Source of the DNA: a virus
Virus record (IMG/VR): IMGVR_UViG_3300045988_128427
Reading direction: 5' to 3' (one strand)
Length of the DNA: 36,356 nt
Part shown: positions 2,441 to 22,050 of the stretch, in pieces
Layout: each line of letters begins with the position of its first letter
Position numbering within the stretch: the first letter of the stretch is position 1
Made by a program: the position numbers and the translations under genes
The notes under the pieces: generated by a model
Databases searched by the model: none
What the model saw: the letters and a program-made list of their open reading frames with translations, nothing else
Told to the model about the DNA's origin: nothing

Positions 2441-2846
2441 AGTAACATTGATGGGAAGATTAACAGCAGCACCAGAGGTTAGATACACTCCTGGCGAAAA
2501 TTCAACAGCAATTGCAAGATATACTCTTGCCGTTGACAGACGTTTTAAGAAAGAGGGCGATTCATCTGCTGATTTTGTTAGATGCGTGGCATTTGGAAAG
2601 CAGGCAGATTTTGCAGAGAAATGGCTGGAAAAAGGAACGAAAATCTGTATCTGCGGAAGAATCCAGACTGGAAGCTATACAAACCGTGATGGAGCAAAAG
2701 TGTATACGACCGATGTGGTTGTGGAAGAACATTATTTCTGTGAGAGCAAGGCAACAGGAGCGGGGACTCATTCTGCTCCGGAACAGAGACATGTGGATGA
2801 TGATGGATTTATGAACTATCCAGACGACGGAGAACTTCCGTTCTAA
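2433..2846 (+). CDS. ssb: single-stranded DNA-binding protein
   Basis: MNKVTLMGRLTAAPEVRYT...FVRCVAFGKQAEF-type OB fold and an acidic C-terminal tail ending DDGELPF. Confidence 0.92.
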   Translation: MNKVTLMGRLTAAPEVRYTPGENSTAIARYTLAVDRRFKKEGDSSADFVRCVAFGKQADFAEKWLEKGTKICICGRIQTGSYTNRDGAKVYTTDVVVEEHYFCESKATGAGTHSAPEQRHVDDDGFMNYPDDGELPF

Positions 2847-2856
2847 GGAGGGGAAA

Positions 2857-3627
2857 ATGGCAGAAGTAAAATGGATAAAAATCGTGACGGATATTTTCGA
2901 TGATGAAAAAATTTTGTTAATCGAGAGTATGCCTGAACATGATGCTATTATCGTAATCTGGTTTAAACTGCTCTGTATGGCTGGAAAGACTAATAATAGT
3001 GGGGTGTTTACCCTGAACGACAAGATAGCTTATACAGACGAAATGCTGGCAACCATTTTCAGACGACCGAAAACGACTGTACAGTTGGCACTTAAGACAT
3101 TTGAGCAATTTGGCATGATTGAAATTGTCGATGGAGTGATAACGATTCCGAATTGGGGAAAACATCAGAGTCTTGATGCTTATGAAAGAAAAAAGGAGCG
3201 TGACAGGGAAAATAAACGCAGGAAACGAGCGGAGCAAAAGGCACTTGCACAGAAATCCGACGATGTTGTCGCCCGACAGTCGCCCGACACGTCGACGGAC
3301 GGCGCAAAAAGTCGCTCCCTAGAAAAAGAGGGAGAAGAAGATAAGAAGGAGATAAGAGGGAGAGTAGAAGAGAACACCGAATTGCCCCCACCCCCTCCAC
3401 AAACAGACTATGAATGTCTTTGCCAAAAATATGGGAAGTCATTTGTTGACGAAAGGGTTACAAGAGCTAAAAAATACAGTGGCACAACAATGGCAACTGT
3501 TGCTAAATGGTGCGAAGAGGATGCAGCAGCAGGAAGAACTAAGAAAACAAAATTCAGTAATTTTCCGAACAGGGATTATGATGTCTCTGATTTGGAAAGA
3601 AAGTTATTGATGAGCAGACAGGGGTGA
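2857..3627 (+). CDS. phage replisome organizer (N-terminal domain type)
   Basis: MAEVKWIKIVTDIFDDEKILLIESMPEHDAIIVIWFKLLCMAGK...ITIPNWGKHQSLD is the characteristic replisome-organizer N-domain. A charged low-complexity linker follows. Confidence 0.8.
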   Translation: MAEVKWIKIVTDIFDDEKILLIESMPEHDAIIVIWFKLLCMAGKTNNSGVFTLNDKIAYTDEMLATIFRRPKTTVQLALKTFEQFGMIEIVDGVITIPNWGKHQSLDAYERKKERDRENKRRKRAEQKALAQKSDDVVARQSPDTSTDGAKSRSLEKEGEEDKKEIRGRVEENTELPPPPPQTDYECLCQKYGKSFVDERVTRAKKYSGTTMATVAKWCEEDAAAGRTKKTKFSNFPNRDYDVSDLERKLLMSRQG

Positions 3628-4164: not shown

Positions 4165-4406
4165 CAAAATAACAAAAGGTATATTGATTTCATCCTGACG
4201 AGTCACTATCTAACACATATCAAAGTGCAGTATGATGAAAAAGGGATGTACGTTCCAGGCGGGGATATCATTTATCCCCCAAGCTGGGATACAAAAGAGA
4301 AAAAAGAAAAGATACTACTGAAAACAGCGAAAATTGAGAGAGAGCAAGAGCTGATGGAGGCAGTGCAGATGAATATATTTGATTTTTTAGGAAAGAAGTA
4401 AAACAA

Positions 4407-5111
4407 ATGTTAGAGTTTGGATATTACAACATGAATTGTATGGATGGTATGAAAGAATTCCCGGATAAGTATTTTGAGCTTGCAATAGTAGACCCACCCT
4501 ATTTTTCTGGACCCGAGCGTAGAAACTATTATGGTAGAAGAAAAAGCCCAATAGGGGTGCAAAGAATATACAAAAAAATGAATAACTGGGAAGTTCCGTC
4601 GCAGGAATATTTTGAAGAGTTATTTAGAGTATCGCAAAATCAAATAGTTTGGGGATGCAATTATTTTACATATAATTTTCCACCAGGGCGCATCGTGTGG
4701 GATAAATGTAATGGGAAGAGTAGCTTTTCCGATTGCGAGATTGCATACTGCAGTTTTCATGACAGCGTGAGACTTGTTCGATACATGTGGAATGGAATGT
4801 TTCAGGGAAAGAGCATCGAAGAAGGATGGATTCAGCAAGGAAATAAAAAGCTGAATGAAAAAAGAATACATCCAACGCAGAAGCCTGTGAATTTATATCG
4901 CTGGATACTGCAGAAATACGCAATTCCGTCTGAATGGAAAATATTAGATACTCATGTTGGAAGCGCAAGTAGCTTAATTGCTTTCGCAGAAAATGGAAAC
5001 AGATTTGTGGGATTTGAAGTAGATGAGAGCATGTACAATGTGTCAAAGAGAAGAATGGAGGAGAGAAATCTTGAGAGTAACACTGAAAAATGGAGTTGTA
5101 TTAGAATTTGA
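4407..5111 (+). CDS. DNA methyltransferase, beta-class N6-adenine/N4-cytosine type (orphan)
   Basis: Motif IV IVDPPYFSG lies near the N-terminus. HPTQKPVNLYRWIL follows, and an AdoMet motif I-like ILDTHVGSASSLIAF lies near the C-terminus. No restriction endonuclease gene is adjacent. Confidence 0.9.
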   Translation: MLEFGYYNMNCMDGMKEFPDKYFELAIVDPPYFSGPERRNYYGRRKSPIGVQRIYKKMNNWEVPSQEYFEELFRVSQNQIVWGCNYFTYNFPPGRIVWDKCNGKSSFSDCEIAYCSFHDSVRLVRYMWNGMFQGKSIEEGWIQQGNKKLNEKRIHPTQKPVNLYRWILQKYAIPSEWKILDTHVGSASSLIAFAENGNRFVGFEVDESMYNVSKRRMEERNLESNTEKWSCIRI

Positions 5112-5283
5112 CTCGACCGGAATGGCGGAAGATTTCAGAGATTGTGCACGGATGGCAGAAGAAACAGATTGTGAGGATGGCAAAGATTGCAAGACATGTA
5201 AATGCAATGTAGCAGTTGGTAACGTAGGATTGTGTACAATTCCGGAAGTGGCAAAAGCATTGGAGGAAGAGACAAATGAATGA
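5071..5283 (+). CDS. small Cys-rich hypothetical protein
   Basis: The track ORF starts at 5023, inside the methyltransferase gene. TTG at 5071 follows ggaggagag and avoids most of that overlap. Contains CEDGKDCKTCKC. Confidence 0.5.
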   Translation: MRVTLKNGVVLEFDSTGMAEDFRDCARMAEETDCEDGKDCKTCKCNVAVGNVGLCTIPEVAKALEEETNE

Positions 5284-5776
5284 GTTATTTGAAATTTTAG
5301 ATGAATTATATGGAATAGAAGTACAAATGGAATCAGGAATTGATATCTTGAAAGATTTAGAAGACTTGTATATGCAGAAAGAAGCTGAAATTTGTGAAGA
5401 AACGGGCGAAATGATGAAAACATCAGAAGAAAGAAAAATAGCAATATTTTCACGAAGCTATATGGAATCAATGAGAAAAAGTTTGAGAGATGCAATCGAA
5501 CGTCTTGATGATGCTTCGGTAGGATCTTTGCGGGAAGAGCATAAAAGAGAATATTGCCAGAAAGAGATTCCCCAAAAGCCAACCTTTGATGGCGATGGAT
5601 ATGCTCCAGACGGAACGGCGGTATGGGACGAGTGGATTTGCCCATGTTGCGGAAGCAGATATGAAGTTGATTATGATGAATATGAATACTTCATCCTGCT
5701 GCGAATTAAAACAAAAGCAGGAAACGGCTTTTGTGAATCGTTTGCGTGGAAAGAATTTGAAGCAATGAGAAAATAG
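5276..5776 (+). CDS. hypothetical protein with a CxxC motif
   Basis: 166-aa ORF containing WICPCCGSRYEV. No family recognised. Confidence 0.6.
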   Translation: MNELFEILDELYGIEVQMESGIDILKDLEDLYMQKEAEICEETGEMMKTSEERKIAIFSRSYMESMRKSLRDAIERLDDASVGSLREEHKREYCQKEIPQKPTFDGDGYAPDGTAVWDEWICPCCGSRYEVDYDEYEYFILLRIKTKAGNGFCESFAWKEFEAMRK

Positions 5777-6402: not shown

Positions 6403-6476
6403 TGAAGCGTAGCTCAGTGGTAGAGCACTTGCAAGGCATCTGCAAGAGGTCGGGGGTTCGATTCCTTCCGCTGTTG
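6403..6476 (+). tRNA. tRNA-like element with a non-canonical anticodon arm (centred triplet GCA) and a weak acceptor stem; possibly a degenerate tRNA
   Basis: Canonical D arm (ta gctc agtggta gagc), AGGTC variable loop and T arm (ggggg ttcgatt ccttc). The anticodon arm is 19 nt (cttgc aaggcatct gcaag) instead of 17. The acceptor (tgaagcg / cgctgtt) has only 4 Watson-Crick pairs plus 1 GU pair. Confidence 0.45.
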
Positions 6477-6571
6477 CTCACACGTGACGGTGTGCCCACT
6501 TGTTCGGGTAATGGACAAGAGCTGGTAAGTGCTAAACTTGCATGTTTCTCTTTTCTTTACATTTTATCTAT

Positions 6572-16619: not shown

Positions 16620-17276
16620 ATGGCAGACGGTAAAATTGTAATCGAAACCGGTCTGGATACCAAGGGAATCGAAAACGGACTTGGAAAAATCTCTTCGTTG
16701 GCATCTAAAGGGCTTGCGACAGCGACAAAAACGATTACTGCAACATCCGCCGCCCTGTCTGGCATGGGTGGATATGCAATAAAAGTAGGCTCAAGCTTTG
16801 AAGCGGCAATGAGTCAAGTGGCTGCAACGATGGGAATGTCTGCGGAAGAAATCCACAATGGAAGTGCAGAGTTTTCTAAGTTGCAGGAAGCTGCAAAAAA
16901 TGCCGGAGCAACAACAAAGTTCTCTGCTACACAGGCGGCAGAGGCATTAAATTACATGGCTCTTGCCGGATACGATACAAACAAATCAGTGCAAACTTTG
17001 CCAACAGTGCTTAATTTAGCAGCGGCAGGAGATATGGACCTTGCGACCGCATCAGACATGGTAACAGACAGTATGTCTGCTCTGGGCGATAAAGCAGGAA
17101 CAGTCGAAAGTTTTGTCGACAAGATGGCGAAGACGTCTCAAAAGAGTAATACAAGTGTTCAACAGTTAGGTGAAGCACTTTTAACAGTGGGTGGTACTGC
17201 AAAATCACTTGCTGGAGGGGTAACAGAAGCCAATACCGTGTTGGGAATCTTCGCTGACAATGGTGTAAAAGGGGCT
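16620..17276 (+). CDS. tail tape measure protein, exon 1 (or N-terminal fragment)
   Basis: TP901-type TMP core (FEAAMSQVAATMGMS...ALNYMALAGYD...LGIFADNGVKGA). The unspliced ORF runs 5 more codons to TAG at 17292-17294. Confidence 0.8.
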
Positions 17277-18438
17277 AAACTTTTGGTCGCTTAGATAGAA
17301 ATATCTTTGAAAAAACATTGGGTGAATTCGGTGAAACCTAAATTTATTTAATCGCCGTTTATTGCAATTATACCTAATTATGATAAAATTGTAATAAGAG
17401 GTGAGATTTTGAAAACTAAAATTTGTAAAGAGTGTAAAAAGGAATTATCCATAGATAATTTTTCAAAAAGTAAATTATTAAAAGATGGGTATGAAAATAA
17501 ATGTAAAAGCTGTAGAAACAAGGCTCGTTTAAAATATGAGTGTGTTTGTGAAACTTGTGGAAAAGTATGGAAAGCGCAAAAACCTAATTCAAAATATTGC
17601 TGTGCTGAATGTAAACCACAAAGCAAACCGAAAAGAATAAAAACAAAGTGTTCATATTGTTCTAAAGAAATAGAAGTAATACCATCCAAGATTGATAAAT
17701 TTCCAATGCATTATTGCAGTATGCAATGCAAAAATAAGCATTATGGAGAACTCCATAAAGGAGACAACAATATAAAATTTAATAAGATAAAGGTCAAATG
17801 TTATACTTGCGGCAAAGAATTTTTAAAAGTAAGAAGTCAAGTTGATAAGTATAAATTTCATTTTTGCACTTTACAATGCAAGAATGAGGGCTATAAGCAT
17901 ATATTTTCTGGAAAAAACAATCCTAATTATAATCCAAGCAAAGAAGAAAAAGAAAGAGAAGAACATAGAAATATTGATGGATATAATGAATGGATAAGAA
18001 ATGTTTTTGAGAGGGATAAATATACATGCCAATGCTGTGGAGACAGTAAAGGTGGAAATTTAAATGCCCACCATAAGTATAATTATTCAGAACATAAAGA
18101 GTTACGAACAGATATAAGCAATGGAATAACTTTGTGCGAGAGATGTCATGTAAATTTTCATAAAATGTATGGATATAAAAATAATACTCAAGAACAAATT
18201 GAAGAATTTATCTTAAATAGACAAGGCAATACCGAGCTAAGCTAGGAGGGAAACCACTAGAAAGCGTAGAGACTAGATAAGAAGCTAACCAGAAGCACTC
18301 ATTAAAAGAGTGCTTTTTGTATGCCTAATTATCCACGAGTGCCCAACATCTTAGCAAGTAAAGTTGAAGATGAAGATATAGTCCAACTCTAAGAGAAATC
18401 TTAGTTCTAGGATAAAGAGCCTAGACAATGAAGAATAG
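17277..18438 (+). mobile_element. intervening sequence in the tape measure gene: probable group I intron carrying an HNH homing endonuclease ORF
   Basis: Exon junction GVKGA|EGGTALRNVILSLSAPT restores a conserved TMP motif in frame. The last exon-1 base is T (17276) and the last intron base is G (18438). ggtc at 17285-17288 could pair with exon ggct as P1. The element is visibly AT-rich. Confidence 0.6.
17409..18245 (+). CDS. HNH homing endonuclease with repeated zinc-finger modules
   Basis: TTG start after aagaggtga. Three to four CxxC...(Y/H)(C/F)C..(E/Q)CK modules are followed by CQCCGDSKGGNLNAHHKYNYSEH...NGITLCERCHVNFH (HNH). Confidence 0.85.
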   Translation: MKTKICKECKKELSIDNFSKSKLLKDGYENKCKSCRNKARLKYECVCETCGKVWKAQKPNSKYCCAECKPQSKPKRIKTKCSYCSKEIEVIPSKIDKFPMHYCSMQCKNKHYGELHKGDNNIKFNKIKVKCYTCGKEFLKVRSQVDKYKFHFCTLQCKNEGYKHIFSGKNNPNYNPSKEEKEREEHRNIDGYNEWIRNVFERDKYTCQCCGDSKGGNLNAHHKYNYSEHKELRTDISNGITLCERCHVNFHKMYGYKNNTQEQIEEFILNRQGNTELS

Positions 18439-21400
18439 GAAGGTGGAACCGCCCTTAGAAATGTTATCTTAAGCCTATCCGCACCAACGGATACGGCGAA
18501 AAAGAAAATGGGAGAGCTTGGTTTGAATGTATTTGACGCAGAGGGAAAAATGCGTCCTTTAAATGATACATTCAATGATTTGAACAAAATCTTAGGCTCA
18601 ATGAATGAGGGTGAGAGAACACAGGTTTTAAACACCATTTTCAACAAGGTCGACTTGAAGAGCGTCAATGCATTACTGGCGAACTCAGGAGAACGTTTCG
18701 ACCAGCTGAAAGGTTATATTGAAGATGCAGACGGAGCAGCCGGACAGATGGCTGATACGATGCAGGACAACTTACAAGGAAAAATGACAACATTAAATTC
18801 TGCTCTTGAGGGATTAGGCATCGGAATCTACGAGAACATCGAAGACTCTTTGAAAGAAGCGGCAGAAGAGGGAATTAGTGCAGTCGGCAGGATATCAAAT
18901 GCTTTGCAAAATGGTGGACTGGATGCGGCAGTAGAGGAAGCTGGTGCAGTGCTTGCGGATTTATCGGTAAAAGTAGCGCAGTCCGCCCCGAAGATGGTAA
19001 ATGCATCGGTATCTTTAATCAAAGCGTTTGCAAAAGGAATTGTAAACAATAAGAGTCAGCTTAAAAAGTCAGCAACAGAGATTGTAAATGTATTAAGCAC
19101 TGGACTCATTAAACTTTTGCCGAAGAAAATGCAAGAGCCAGCGGAAAAAGGAATGGATGCTTTAAAACGAACATTTGATGCTGGATTAAAAAGTGTTGTA
19201 AAGATTGCAGAACCAATTGTAAGTGGACTTGGAAAAATATTCATTAAACTTGCTGACAATATGGATAAAATAGCACCTGTTACTGTTTCGCTTGTAGCTG
19301 CTTTTAAGACTTTTAAAACAGTCAGCGGACCGGTTACAACAGTTGTATCTGTAATTACGAAGTTAAGCAGAGTATCTTCCGAAGCTGGTGGAGTAATGGC
19401 TGCATTAAATGCGGTGATGAGCGCAAATCCAGCGGCAATGATTGCAATCGGAATTGGTGCACTGGCAGGTGGAATTGCCTTTCTTGCACTTAAATCAAAT
19501 GAGGCAAGCAAAGAACAGGTTGCATTCCAGAAAGAAATTGACAACTTAAGCGCTTCGATTGAGAAGAACCGGAACGAATTAGATGAGTTATCCAGTTCTA
19601 TTGAAGGCACAAATAACTCCGCAGAAAGTTCCGCAGCTCCATTGGAACGTCTGAAAGGTAAATTGTCAGAAGCTTTTGATGAAACCGGAAAGATGAAACA
19701 GGGCTGTGAACAGCTTGCAGGATCTATTTTAAATCAGTTAAATGAGGCAATGGGAACAGAATATTCCATTACCGCAGATGGATTTATACAGAATAATGAG
19801 GGTGTGAAGCAGTCTCTTGGAGATGTAACACAGTCCATTGATGAATATGTGCGTAGCTTGAAAAAGAAAGCGGTGCAGGAAGCTGTAACAAACCAATATG
19901 CTGATAATTTGCAGAAACAGTCTGAAATACAGGCAGATTTGACAAAAGCCCAGAAACAGTACAATAAAGCATTAGAGAACTATATTGCAACTGAAAACGG
20001 AAGCACAAAGGAAAGAACCAAGGCAAACGAACAACTTGAACAGGCAAAGAAAAACTTATCGGATGCTACGAAAGAGGCTGCTAAGGCAGAGTATCAGACA
20101 AAAGCATTAGATGAAGTTATGGATTTGCTTGGTGAGGGAAGCATAGAAAGTATTCAAAAAGCCTTAGATTCCTACGCAAAGATACCAACCGAAGCAGATA
20201 AAGCTGCAAAAGGTGTGAAATACAGCCATGAAGAGATAGAAAAAACACTCTCTTCAACAGATTTTTCTGTTATGGCAAAAGGGTTTGAAATGGCTACAGA
20301 GGAAATTAAAGCCTCTGGTGGAAAGATTCCTGAAAGTTTGCAGAAAGCAATTTCACAGGCAGTGGAAAAACTGAATAATTTAGGACCGGCTGGCAAAAAG
20401 TCACTTGCTTGGAGTTTGTCAGAAATGATGCAGGGAATGGAAGAAAAAATTCCAGAGTTTAAAGGTACTGCATCTATGACGTCTGATGAAATTATAAAAA
20501 CCTTTGCTACATATTTAAAAGATAGTGGGGCACTTGGTGATGTTGGAACAGAGGCAATTGAACAGCTGATTCAAGGAATTGATGAAGTGGACACACAGAC
20601 CACTCCGGCACAAAAAGCAAGAGATGCTATTGACTCTACAACAAATCAACTTGAAACCGGTGAAGATTTCATCCGGACAGCGGCAGGAAACAGTGCAGGT
20701 GCAATTACACGAGGATTTACAGAAACAGATTATTCCGGAGCAGTGTTTGCGGCGGCAAAAGCGTGCGGAATGACAGTAGAGGAAGTGCTTGCGCATCAGG
20801 AAGAACTGTATATGGCGGCATTAACAGTTGCTCAGTCTGGCGCAACTGGATTTACGGCGGCAGACATGCCGGCAGTGTTTGGCTCAAATGCATCTGCCGC
20901 CGCATCGGCAGCGAATACATATTTGTTAAGCAGTGCGGAATCTATGCAGTTGTCAGCATCAGCCCTTGGAAATGCAGCAAATACCGGGATTGTTGCCGGA
21001 AATATGCCAGGAACATTTTCAACTCAATCACAAAGCGCAGTATCAGGACTTGTAAATAGCTTGAACAGTGGAGCAGGTAGCGCTTCATCGGCAGCATCAG
21101 CTCTTGGAAATGCGGCGAAATCTGGTCTTGGAAATATGTCTGTTGCTGGAAACTATCAGACCGCAGCGACATCAGCAACACAAAATTTTGCAAGGACATT
21201 ATCTGCAGGGCAGGGAAATGCAAAATCATCAGCATCCGCACTTGGAAACTCTGCAAAAAATTCCTTAAAAGGAACGAACATTCCGAGTAATTTTACTCAG
21301 CAGGCAAAAACAGCGACAAATCAGTTTGCGGCTGGAATCCGGAATGGAACAAATAGTGCTTCATCGGCAGCAAGAGGACTTGGAACAGCAGCGACAAAAG

Positions 21401-22050
21401 GCTTAAGTAGTGTTAATGTAGCAAGTTCTGCAAAGACACAAGGAAGCAATTTAGCATCTAATTTCGTATCAGGAATTAATAGTGGAAAAGGTTCAGCGGA
21501 TTCCGCAGCGGCATCGCTTGGAAGAACAGCGGTTTCGGGCTTATCAAGTAATTCTGGTGGCAGTTATTCGATTGGAGTAAATTTCTCAAATGGCTTTGCG
21601 AATGGTATTCGTGCTGGTAGTTATGGAGTTGCCAGTGCAGCGGCATCCGTAGCAGCAGCTGCAGCTAATGCGGCAAAGGCAAACTTACAAATTCATTCTC
21701 CATCACGAGTGGGCGGCTGGATTGGTAAGATGTTTGATTACGGTATCAGTGGAGGAATGGAAGATAATACTTCTGTTGTAACACAGGCTGCGGAAATGGT
21801 AACCGATGCCATGCAGGTGGATGTAAAGTCTCTGCTTGGAATGATGAGAGGAGCAGTAAGTGAAACAGTTTCCAGAATCACGACAAACAAGACAAACAAA
21901 ATGCTTGAAAGAGCGCCACAGGCTTACGGATATGCAGCTTCTCAAAATACAGAAGTGAAACAGGAAATTAATTTCTATCAGCCAGTTCAGTCTCCGGTAG
22001 AGATGAGCCGTGCACTTAGAAAAGAAGCAAGGAGGTTGGCATTAACTTGA
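18439..22050 (+). CDS. tail tape measure protein, exon 2 (or C-terminal fragment)
   Basis: The frame is open from 18439 (EGGTALRNVILSLSAPTDTAKKKMGELGLNVFDAEGKMRPL). The track ORF begins at the internal Met at 18508. Features include long coiled-coil regions, a TM-like segment and Ser/Ala-rich repeats of about 40 aa. Confidence 0.8.
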   Translation, partial: EGGTALRNVILSLSAPTDTAKKKMGELGLNVFDAEGKMRPLNDTFNDLNKILGSMNEGERTQVLNTIFNKVDLKSVNALLANSGERFDQLKGYIEDADGAAGQMADTMQDNLQGKMTTLNSALEGLGIGIYENIEDSLKEAAEEGISAVGRISNALQNGGLDAAVEEAGAVLADLSVKVAQSAPKMVNASVSLIKAFAKGIVNNKSQLKKSATEIVNVLSTGLIKLLPKKMQEPAEKGMDALKRTFDAGLKSVVKIAEPIVSGLGKIFIKLADNMDKIAPVTVSLVAAFKTFKTVSGPVTTVVSVITKLSRVSSEAGGVMAALNAVMSANPAAMIAIGIGALAGGIAFLALKSNEASKEQVAFQKEIDNLSASIEKNRNELDELSSSIEGTNNSAESSAAPLERLKGKLSEAFDETGKMKQGCEQLAGSILNQLNEAMGTEYSITADGFIQNNEGVKQSLGDVTQSIDEYVRSLKKKAVQEAVTNQYADNLQKQSEIQADLTKAQKQYNKALENYIATENGSTKERTKANEQLEQAKKNLSDATKEAAKAEYQTKALDEVMDLLGEGSIESIQKALDSYAKIPTEADKAAKGVKYSHEEIEKTLSSTDFSVMAKGFEMATEEIKASGGKIPESLQKAISQAVEKLNNLGPAGKKSLAWSLSEMMQGMEEKIPEFKGTASMTSDEIIKTFATYLKDSGALGDVGTEAIEQLIQGIDEVDTQTTPAQKARDAIDSTTNQLETGEDFIRTAAGNSAGAITRGFTETDYSGAVFAAAKACGMTVEEVLAHQEELYMAALTVAQSGATGFTAADMPAVFGSNASAAASAANTYLLSSAESMQLSASALGNAANTGIVAGNMPGTFSTQSQSAVSGLVNSLNSGAGSASSAASALGNAAKSGLGNMSVAGNYQTAATSATQNFARTLSAGQGNAKSSASALGNSAKNSLKGTNIPSNFTQQAKTATNQFAAGIRNGTNSASSAARGLGTAATKGLSSVNVASSAKTQGSNLASNFVSGINSGKGSADSAAASLGRTAVSGLSSNSGGSYSIGVNFSNGFANGIRAGSYGVASAAASVAAAAANAAKANLQIHSPSRVGGWIGKMFDYGISGGMEDNTSVVTQAAEMVTDAMQVDVKSLLGMMRGAVSETVSRITTNKTNKMLERAPQAYGYAASQNTEVKQEINFYQPVQSPVEMSRALRKEARRLALT

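Follow-up and report, generated by a model that had tools for sequence, protein, structure and literature searches.

A putative mobile group I intron with an HNH endonuclease gene in the tape-measure gene of a temperate siphovirus from clostridial gut bacteria

The IMG/VR virus record IMGVR_UViG_3300045988_128427, all 36,356 nucleotides of which were analysed and are referred to below as the window, is a siphovirus-type genome of about 36 kb, in which the genes of the tail tube, the chaperones, the tape-measure protein (TMP) and Dit follow each other in this order. The element at 17277-18438 splits one tape-measure gene and harbors an open reading frame (ORF) of an HNH homing endonuclease. Firmicutes bacterium OM04-13BH, an isolate from the human gut, contains a 96% identical copy (L132) within a contig of 476 kb, which makes it a prophage of gut Clostridia; the host phage is a temperate siphovirus of these bacteria. 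The assignment of the element to group I introns, proposed in an earlier sequence-only reading of this DNA, is backed by its comparative structure, by Rfam and by intron-less alleles.

The upstream part of the TMP gene, an ORF at 16620-17294, terminates as ...NGVKGAKLLVA, and its TAG is found exactly where the sequence-only reading had placed the stop. The frame of the downstream part begins at 18439 with EGGTALRN, also as had been claimed; the in-frame codon just before it is another TAG (18436-18438), and from 18439 up to the ATG at 18508 this frame contains no ATG, GTG or TTG, nor was a Shine-Dalgarno sequence seen there, in agreement with the earlier statement that exon 2 has no ribosome-binding site or start of its own before 18508. 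Exons 1 and 2 together encode 1,422 aa in one open frame with a single terminal stop and the junction ...NGVKGA-EGGTALRN, the junction peptide of the predicted spliced TMP being GVKGAEGGTALR / ...NGVKGAEGGTALR. The Pfam family PF10145 (PhageMin_Tail) is divided between exon 1, which closes with profile positions 1-133, and exon 2, which opens with 134-200; since the profile splits between 133 and 134, this is one domain cut in two. Because the intron is 1,162 nt long (3n+1), exon 2 lies in another genomic frame than exon 1 and is in frame only once the intron is removed. The element had also been described as AT-rich with stops in the TMP frame, which is borne out by its GC content of 30.0% (vs 43.3% in the exons) and by the TAG that closes the translation of exon 1. 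Protein colinearity alone also permits boundaries shifted by -1 (GCG for GCT, both encoding alanine); we favor those used here, because they alone put a U ahead of the 5' splice site and let the intron end in G, the two bases that the sequence-only reading had pointed out (17276 is T and 18438 is G).

Once the intron is taken out, the host gene is continuous and runs colinear with many intron-less TMPs, as the alignment suggested in the earlier reading now shows. With a 180-aa junction probe 864 phage records were matched, 712 of them over 80% or more of its length at a single place. The DNA of the Clostridium perfringens phage phiCP39-O is uninterrupted (...GGTATAAAAGGCGCA / GAGGGAGGAACT..., a slash marking the junction here and below) and reads ADNGIKGA-EGGTALRN; the sequence-only reading had taken the motif formed on joining 17276 to 18439 for that of uninterrupted TMPs. 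The majority of the 80 best IMG/VR relatives are uninterrupted at the TMP junction, and the closest of the IMG/VR relatives, L148, with 97% amino-acid identity, is intron-less (GTAAAAGGTGCA / GAAGGTGGAACT). All intron-containing alleles have AAAGGGGCT / GAAGGTGGAAC flanking the junction (17268-17276 / 18439-18449 in the window), whereas the intron-less alleles (L148-L227) encode the same amino acids with varied synonymous codons, such as GGTGCA/GAAGGT, GGAGCA/GAAGGC and GGCGCA/GAGGGA. The uniform junction of the intron-bearing alleles, as opposed to the variable empty sites, fits a P1/P10 pairing constraint or co-conversion. In L217 and L220 (match 2501-3250) the TMP match is 210 nt longer over the region of the 180-aa probe and has no Rfam match; the additional 210 nt are probably an in-frame insertion and not an intron.

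The features of the locus are collected in Table 1. P1 comprises seven pairs and one G·G mismatch, with the wobble U17276·G17285 at the splice site; the GGTC, in which the sequence-only reading had recognized the partner of the exon eight nt into the element, occupies intron positions 9-12 (17285-17288). The last ~22 nt of the HNH ORF are at the same time P5', P4' and the 5' strand of P6. The intron, which has P7.1/P7.2 and the AAGAUAUAGUC core, is of the IA type found in phages: the additional helices P7.1 and P7.2 are located between P7 and P3', and the assignment, to subgroup IA (IA2-like phage introns), holds at the subgroup level. The P7.2 hairpin with its U-run recurs in the Lactobacillus delbrueckii phage JCL1032 and in the IMG/VR relatives L030, L036, L090 and L097. 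A search of the window for a second intron by the J8/7 motif revealed just one exact copy.

Table 1. Features of the interrupted tape-measure gene and its intron (positions in the window; RNA letters for ribozyme elements).
Feature	Position	Strand	Basis or remark
TMP exon 1, 219 codons (657 nt)	16620..17276	+	ORF list; PF10145 profile positions 1-133; ends with U17276
P1, exon strand 17269-17276 with internal guide 17285-17292	17269..17292	+	Sequence; Rfam first helix holds equivalent bases of ORF-less alleles
Group I intron, 1,162 nt	17277..18438	+	Rfam, comparative structure, colinearity with intron-less alleles
P10 guide CUUUU, pairs with exon 2 GAAGG (18439-18443)	17280..17284	+	Sequence; immediately 5' of P1 guide
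In-frame TAG closing exon 1 translation, six codons into the intron (Lys-Leu-Leu-Val-Ala, then TAG)	17292..17294	+	ORF list
P2 hairpin AGAUA-GAAA-UAUCU	17293..17306	+	Sequence; same stem in phiCP13O with GUAA loop
P3 5' strand UUGGG, pairs with 18342-18346	17318..17322	+	Covariation
P4 5' strand UUCGGUG, pairs with 18230-18236	17327..17333	+	12 pair types; UUGCUGG/UCAGCAG in most relatives
P5 (CCU 17337-17339 with AGG 18224-18226) and loop holding the endonuclease gene	17337..18226	+	Loop of 20-90 nt in ORF-less alleles
Promoter-like TTGCAA-16-TAAAAT with TG extension, upstream of HNH ORF	17362..17389	+	Consensus scan only; weak
HNH homing-endonuclease ORF, 278 aa, 837 nt, TTG start	17409..18245	+	Pfam HNH, PHROG 1271, 208 homologues
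P4 3' strand UACCGAG	18230..18236	+	Kept in phiCP13O, read there by another ORF in another frame
P6 hairpin CUAG..GG-GAAA-CC..CUAG	18242..18260	+	4/4 pairs with double changes; 93.9% of cells paired
P7 5' strand GACUA, pairs with UAGUC 18379-18383	18271..18275	+	P3/P7 pseudoknot; helix invariant
P7.1, GAUAA 18276-18280 with UUAUC 18329-18333, around P7.2	18276..18333	+	24-37 double changes per pair
P7.2 hairpin and U-run	18291..18320	+	Recurs in JCL1032 and other relatives
P3 3' strand CCCAA	18342..18346	+	Covariation
P8 hairpin	18347..18372	+	92.6% of cells paired; 3 pairs with double changes
J8/7 (AAGAUA) and P7 3' strand (UAGUC)	18373..18383	+	Rfam alignment; most conserved group I core motif; sole exact copy in window
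P9 hairpin CUAAGA-GAAA-UCUUAG	18389..18404	+	CUUAGC-GAAA-GCUAAG in same-site alleles; 7/7 pairs with double changes in family
P9.1 hairpin CUAGG-AUAAAGAG-CCUAG	18407..18424	+	Fifth pair G-C, C-G or U-A in same-site alleles; 99% of cells paired
Terminal G (omega G), last intron base	18438	+	Sequence
TMP exon 2, 1,203 codons plus stop	18439..22050	+	PF10145 profile positions 134-200 match residues 2-68

The motif TGAAGATATAGTC...GGATAAAGAGCC is present in more than 119 IMG/VR contigs and thus defines a large phage intron family. Our alignment of 41 ORF-less cores (A3), including JCL1032 and the same-site alleles, contains a complete P3-P9 core, for which the sequence-only reading had recommended manual models: 92.6% of the cells of the named structure are paired, vs 66.0% after shuffling (none of 500 shuffles reached the observed value) and 31-42% with the partners slid, while the covariation score amounts to 0.643 (0.160 when shuffled) and double changes occur in 32 of the 43 pairs. 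P3 was tested independently, its 5' strand being placed only by the complementarity of P4 and the TGAA spacer; this strand is fully complementary to the 3' strand in 54 of 63 members, vs 10.7% with the partners shuffled, and 30 pair types are found. In A3 this helix is 99% paired, with double changes at all five of its pairs, and in the same-site alleles it reads UUGGG/CCCAA, UUUGG/CCAAA or UUCGG/CCGAA; P6, P9 and P9.1 are compensated in these alleles, too. Analysis of 60 3' domains by RNAalifold recovered P7, P7.1, P8 and P9.1; in the variable helices each pair has 9-37 double changes. MAFFT plus RNAalifold failed to recover P9 from the same 60 domains, through misalignment; this helix is backed instead by the counting in the named structure and by direct comparison of the same-site alleles. 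The conserved stretch AAUACCGAGCYAAGCUA covers P4' and the first part of P6, and the HNH ORF in the window reads it in one frame, a DUF2726-type nuclease ORF in the C. perfringens phage phiCP13O in another; since these ORFs are unrelated, the stretch is constrained as RNA and not as protein.

The cmsearch check with RF00028, suggested in the earlier reading, gave a divided answer. At the gathering threshold (50 bits for RF00028) Rfam missed the intron over the whole window, finding only a tRNA, and in a sensitive scan RF00028 covered 18289-18405, where it scored 32.7 bits (E=3.4e-6) and its alignment took in P8, J8/7 (GAAGAUAUAGUCC) and P9. The score is low because the 837-nt ORF in the P5 loop puts P1-P5 and P5'-P9.1 more than 800 nt apart. 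The check did succeed with the sister phage L007 (IMGVR_UViG_3300045988_057142), which contains at the same TMP site an ORF-less intron of 345 nt scoring 71.5 bits. In comparison with the window, L007 has a clean deletion of 817 nt (17400-18216), which takes away the Shine-Dalgarno sequence and nearly the whole HNH ORF and leaves the upstream promoter-like region, and the ribozyme remainder is identical at 339 of 340 positions. ORF-less introns of 275-342 nt occupy the same TMP site in L121, L131 and L133, with RF00028 scores of 78.8, 67.3 and 80.3 bits and TMP exons that are only about 74% identical. The dataset 3300045988 holds intron-with-ORF (L122, L125), ORF-less (L007) and empty-site (L148) forms. 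In L131 (7140-7481; the metagenome-assembled genome Clostridia MGBC162170) the P5 loop has a near copy of ~21 nt from the end of its own exon 1 (GCAGATAATGGTATAAAAGGC vs GCAGATAATGGTATTAAAGGGGCT in the exon), possibly a trace left when an endonuclease gene invaded or when recombination took place at a sequence resembling a target.

The ORF in the P5 loop is preceded by a Shine-Dalgarno-like AGAGGTG five nt upstream of its TTG start. As for the promoter-like site listed in Table 1, sites of this kind in the region number 11 vs 7.1±2.7 expected, that is, within chance. The Pfam domain HNH (PF01844) is matched at residues 207-251 (E=4.4e-6, 27.2 bits, cut-off 21.4) and PHROG 1271 with E=7e-26. 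Four zinc-ribbon modules of the type CxxC...Cxx(x)C are located at residues ~6-35, 47-68, 81-107 and 130-156, in addition to the HNH domain's own zinc site, so that the HNH ORF with three to four zinc modules of the sequence-only reading is recovered with the higher of the two numbers. Across the family the number of modules varies from 3 to 8, and the length of the protein follows it. In the 41 four-module homologues H221, H222, N238, C207, C210, C243, C246, H247 and all module cysteines are invariant. The beta-beta-alpha-metal domain is intact in its catalytic His and Asn and in its metal or zinc ligands, and the ORF is placed in a peripheral loop of the predicted intron. One near-identical variant, P0124, carries C243Y at an invariant zinc ligand of the HNH domain and, from this replacement, may be an inactivated copy. 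The AlphaFold model (mean pLDDT 88, pTM 0.42) is confident locally and shows a chain of small domains that are independent of each other. When the entire model was submitted to Foldseek, nothing matched at E<=0.001; the weak matches relate the HNH domain to the HNH domains of phages and Cas9 (probability 0.9-0.99, E at least 0.08) and the zinc modules to DotN and YacG. A PDB sequence search with the protein returned nothing below E=0.2. Cysteine makes up an unusually large share of the protein, roughly 24 of its 278 residues. The phage encodes a tRNA-Cys (6403-6477, plus strand, anticodon GCA, Rfam 43.6 bits).

The zinc-finger HNH architecture, which the sequence-only reading had singled out as worth confirming, is not a one-off but belongs to a large existing family: beside PHROG 1271, there are 208 homologues, chiefly from Clostridia (C. 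difficile, C. tetani, C. sporogenes, Sarcina). The closer homologues P0010, P0013, P0029 and P0063 are all encoded within split TMP genes. For the first three of them the intron belongs to the family of the window and has its ORF in P5; one of these introns lies at a second site (AEGLQYLA/LAGWD), the other two close to the motif interrupted in the window. A cluster of near-identical proteins, whose representative differs from the protein of the window by one residue, occurs on hundreds of contigs, and all 24 contigs examined for the representative have the same TMP context. In L146 (1293-3863) an SPP1-type portal gene is split into parts of 344 aa and 88 aa, between which lies a distant homologue with a weak NUMOD3 match. 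In L144 (701-5897) a TMP gene with a homologous HNH appears to be interrupted twice, 563 aa being followed by the HNH ORF, 73 aa that match PF10145, a gap and a further 861 aa, which suggests two introns in one TMP gene.

In the comparison of the 3' half of the ribozyme with 50,697 phage records the best match, and the closest intron of an isolated phage, was the TMP intron (ORF17) of phage JCL1032, with 89% coverage and 71.8% identity. It resides in the same host gene and motif region (ANRGMDGTRAGTGLRKV in JCL1032, ADNGVKGAEGGTALRNV in the window), shares the P7.2 hairpin with its U-run as well as the P9.1 loop, and passes the RF00028 cut-off with 59.4 bits. In contrast to the intron of the window, it has no ORF, its insertion point is, by sequence reading, about 10 nt upstream, and its P1/P10 guide sequences are different. 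The TMP CDS of JCL1032 is annotated in GenBank as joined, and the intron is reported to be experimentally self-splicing (Riipinen and Alatossava, 2004, Arch Virol 149:2013, as cited in PMC6669764 and PMC2504315). Group I introns at three TMP sites, TMP-IVS1, TMP-IVS2 and TMP-IVS3, were described in prophages of the Bacillus cereus group (Tourasse and Kolsto, 2008, PMC2504315). Going by this published description, they are similar to the intron of the window: they belong to the phage-type (IA1/IA2) group I introns and lie in TMP genes of prophages, where they are inserted in frame and soon reach a stop codon, an early stop being described as the rule for phage and prophage introns (PMC2504315); they occur with or without homing-endonuclease genes, and different introns or ORFs may be found at one site, while their hosts are Bacillus and not Clostridia. 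The intron in the conserved core of the TMP is less unusual than the sequence-only reading implied: introns of this kind have been published for the B. cereus-group prophages and JCL1032, and the finding as such is correct but ordinary.

The C. perfringens phages phiCP13O, phiCP34O, CPQ4 and vB_CpeS-17DYC have introns at the identical insertion site, with the first 22 intron bases identical to those of the window, the same P1/P10 and a homologous core, in which P3, P6, P8, P9 and P9.1 are compensated. Their P5 loop contains, however, a different nuclease ORF (267 aa, Pfam DUF2726, PHROG 559/9084). In phiCP13O (L001) the intron is located at 4401-5467, and the DUF2726-type ORF (4505-5308) is unannotated. 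GenBank gives for all four phages two TMP CDS and an unannotated gap with no intron, and the annotated start of the second TMP CDS is the last three bases of the intron (ATG). Our literature search found no paper mentioning an intron in phages of the phiCP13O group.

I-HmuI, I-BasI, I-TwoI and I-TevIII are HNH homing endonucleases of phage group I introns. The HNH protein of the window resembles them in being intron-encoded and in the beta-beta-alpha-metal core with its His, Asn and zinc ligands; the difference is in the DNA-binding part, which is an N-terminal tandem zinc-ribbon array (3-8) in the family of the window and NUMOD or helix-turn-helix modules in the I-HmuI group. A related group I intron 5' core (P2-P7), ~81% identical over 57 nt, was seen in the crAss-like phage cr4_1 (L135, NC_055893) at ~2500-2640, and also in cr6_1, in a gap without an annotated gene on the same strand.

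We estimate at about 0.93 the probability that 17277-18438 is a mobile group I intron with an HNH gene, situated in the conserved N-terminal domain of the TMP and removed by self-splicing. The anatomy, the covariation, the colinearity with empty sites and the ORF-less and ORF-swapped alleles are demonstrated directly; the splicing, the endonuclease activity and the target of the endonuclease are predictions made from these data. Several observations weigh against this conclusion. The RF00028 score of the window itself is below the gathering cut-off (32.7 vs 50 bits). P1 has just four contiguous pairs beside the splice site before the G·G mismatch, and both P1 and P10 are the same in all same-site alleles, hence without covariation. 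The family was gathered by a pattern with J8/7-P7' and the P9.1 loop and filtered on GACUA, and A3 also on P4 complementarity of at least 6/7; since these elements are built into the search pattern and the filters, the invariance of P7 is uninformative and part of the P4 signal arises by construction. The hairpin and U-run at 18291-18320 could in principle end some transcripts before exon 2; the terminator scan made no terminator call there.

The most obvious rival view is that the TMP is produced as two separate polypeptides and that the HNH enzyme is a free-standing homing endonuclease which split the gene, with no splicing involved. Gene callers and GenBank annotators do give two separate CDS, and genes split by free-standing endonuclease genes occur in T4-like phages. 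This view is highly improbable, considering that ahead of 18508 exon 2 offers neither a start codon nor a Shine-Dalgarno sequence, that a start at 18508 would lose 23 conserved residues of PF10145, and that a full group I core with strong covariation flanks the ORF; moreover, a free-standing endonuclease gene cannot account for L007, where the intact 345-nt ribozyme is retained without the ORF. We attach an equally slight chance to the supposition that the intron is a decayed, splicing-defective relic and the TMP gene of the prophage is broken. Prophages often decay, the 96% identical L132 is a prophage within a bacterial contig, and one member of the HNH cluster has the C243Y change of a zinc ligand; nevertheless, both exons are open, all core helices pair in the window's own sequence, the near-identical HNH cluster is found on hundreds of contigs, with the same TMP context in each of the 24 examined, and the ribozyme is the same at 339 of 340 positions with and without the ORF. 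Least probable of all, and already contradicted by the sequence, is the assumption of an intein, a group II intron or another kind of insertion, for which nothing speaks but the insertion into a conserved protein motif. An intein is excluded, because the TMP frame is closed by the TAG six codons in and the length is 3n+1. As for a group II intron, there is no Rfam group II match (RF00028 alone matches), and the ORF encodes an HNH nuclease only.

Self-splicing combined with HNH-driven homing is, judging by the sequence comparisons, very likely to operate at this locus, and we suppose that it would proceed as follows. Transcription of the tail operon would run through the intron, and the ribosomes translating exon 1 would halt at the TAG at 17292-17294, short of the ribozyme core, so that the RNA could fold into P1-P9.1. 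An external guanosine would attack after U17276, held in P1 by the U·G wobble; P10 (CUUUU with GAAGG) would align exon 2, G18438 would occupy the guanosine site of P7, and the exons would be ligated into an mRNA encoding a single TMP of 1,422 aa. The ORF in the P5 loop would supply the HNH endonuclease, with its four tandem zinc-ribbon modules and C-terminal beta-beta-alpha-metal nuclease, and in phages or prophages residing in the same cell this enzyme would nick or cut the TMP alleles that have no intron, close to the point of insertion, the repair off the intron-containing copy resulting in the spread of the intron (homing). It is a tentative idea, and in our opinion an unlikely one, that the array of near-identical zinc-ribbon modules (CxxC-x18-CxxxC, 3 to 8 copies) serves as a repeat-based, re-targetable device of DNA recognition specialised on TMP genes, the number and sequence of the modules setting the target; with an unrelated nuclease gene or none in the P5 loop of sister phages, the locus would then display all stages of homing, from invasion to swap and loss of endonuclease genes.

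In general, the current understanding of group I introns is left unchanged by this finding. Two things appear to be undescribed so far, namely that the published C. perfringens phages contain the intron and how HNH proteins with tandem zinc ribbons behave biochemically; the variable array of these proteins may be worth a biochemical look. In this phage group, phiCP13O, phiCP34O, CPQ4 and 17DYC included, the TMP is annotated as two genes, where a single spliced gene with a nuclease encoded in its intron should be entered, and this reannotation matters wherever tail length or TMP domains are derived from annotation. The series of alleles at a single site, which comprises empty, ORF-less, HNH-containing and DUF2726-type nuclease-containing forms and an ORF-deleted derivative, suits the study of homing-endonuclease turnover.

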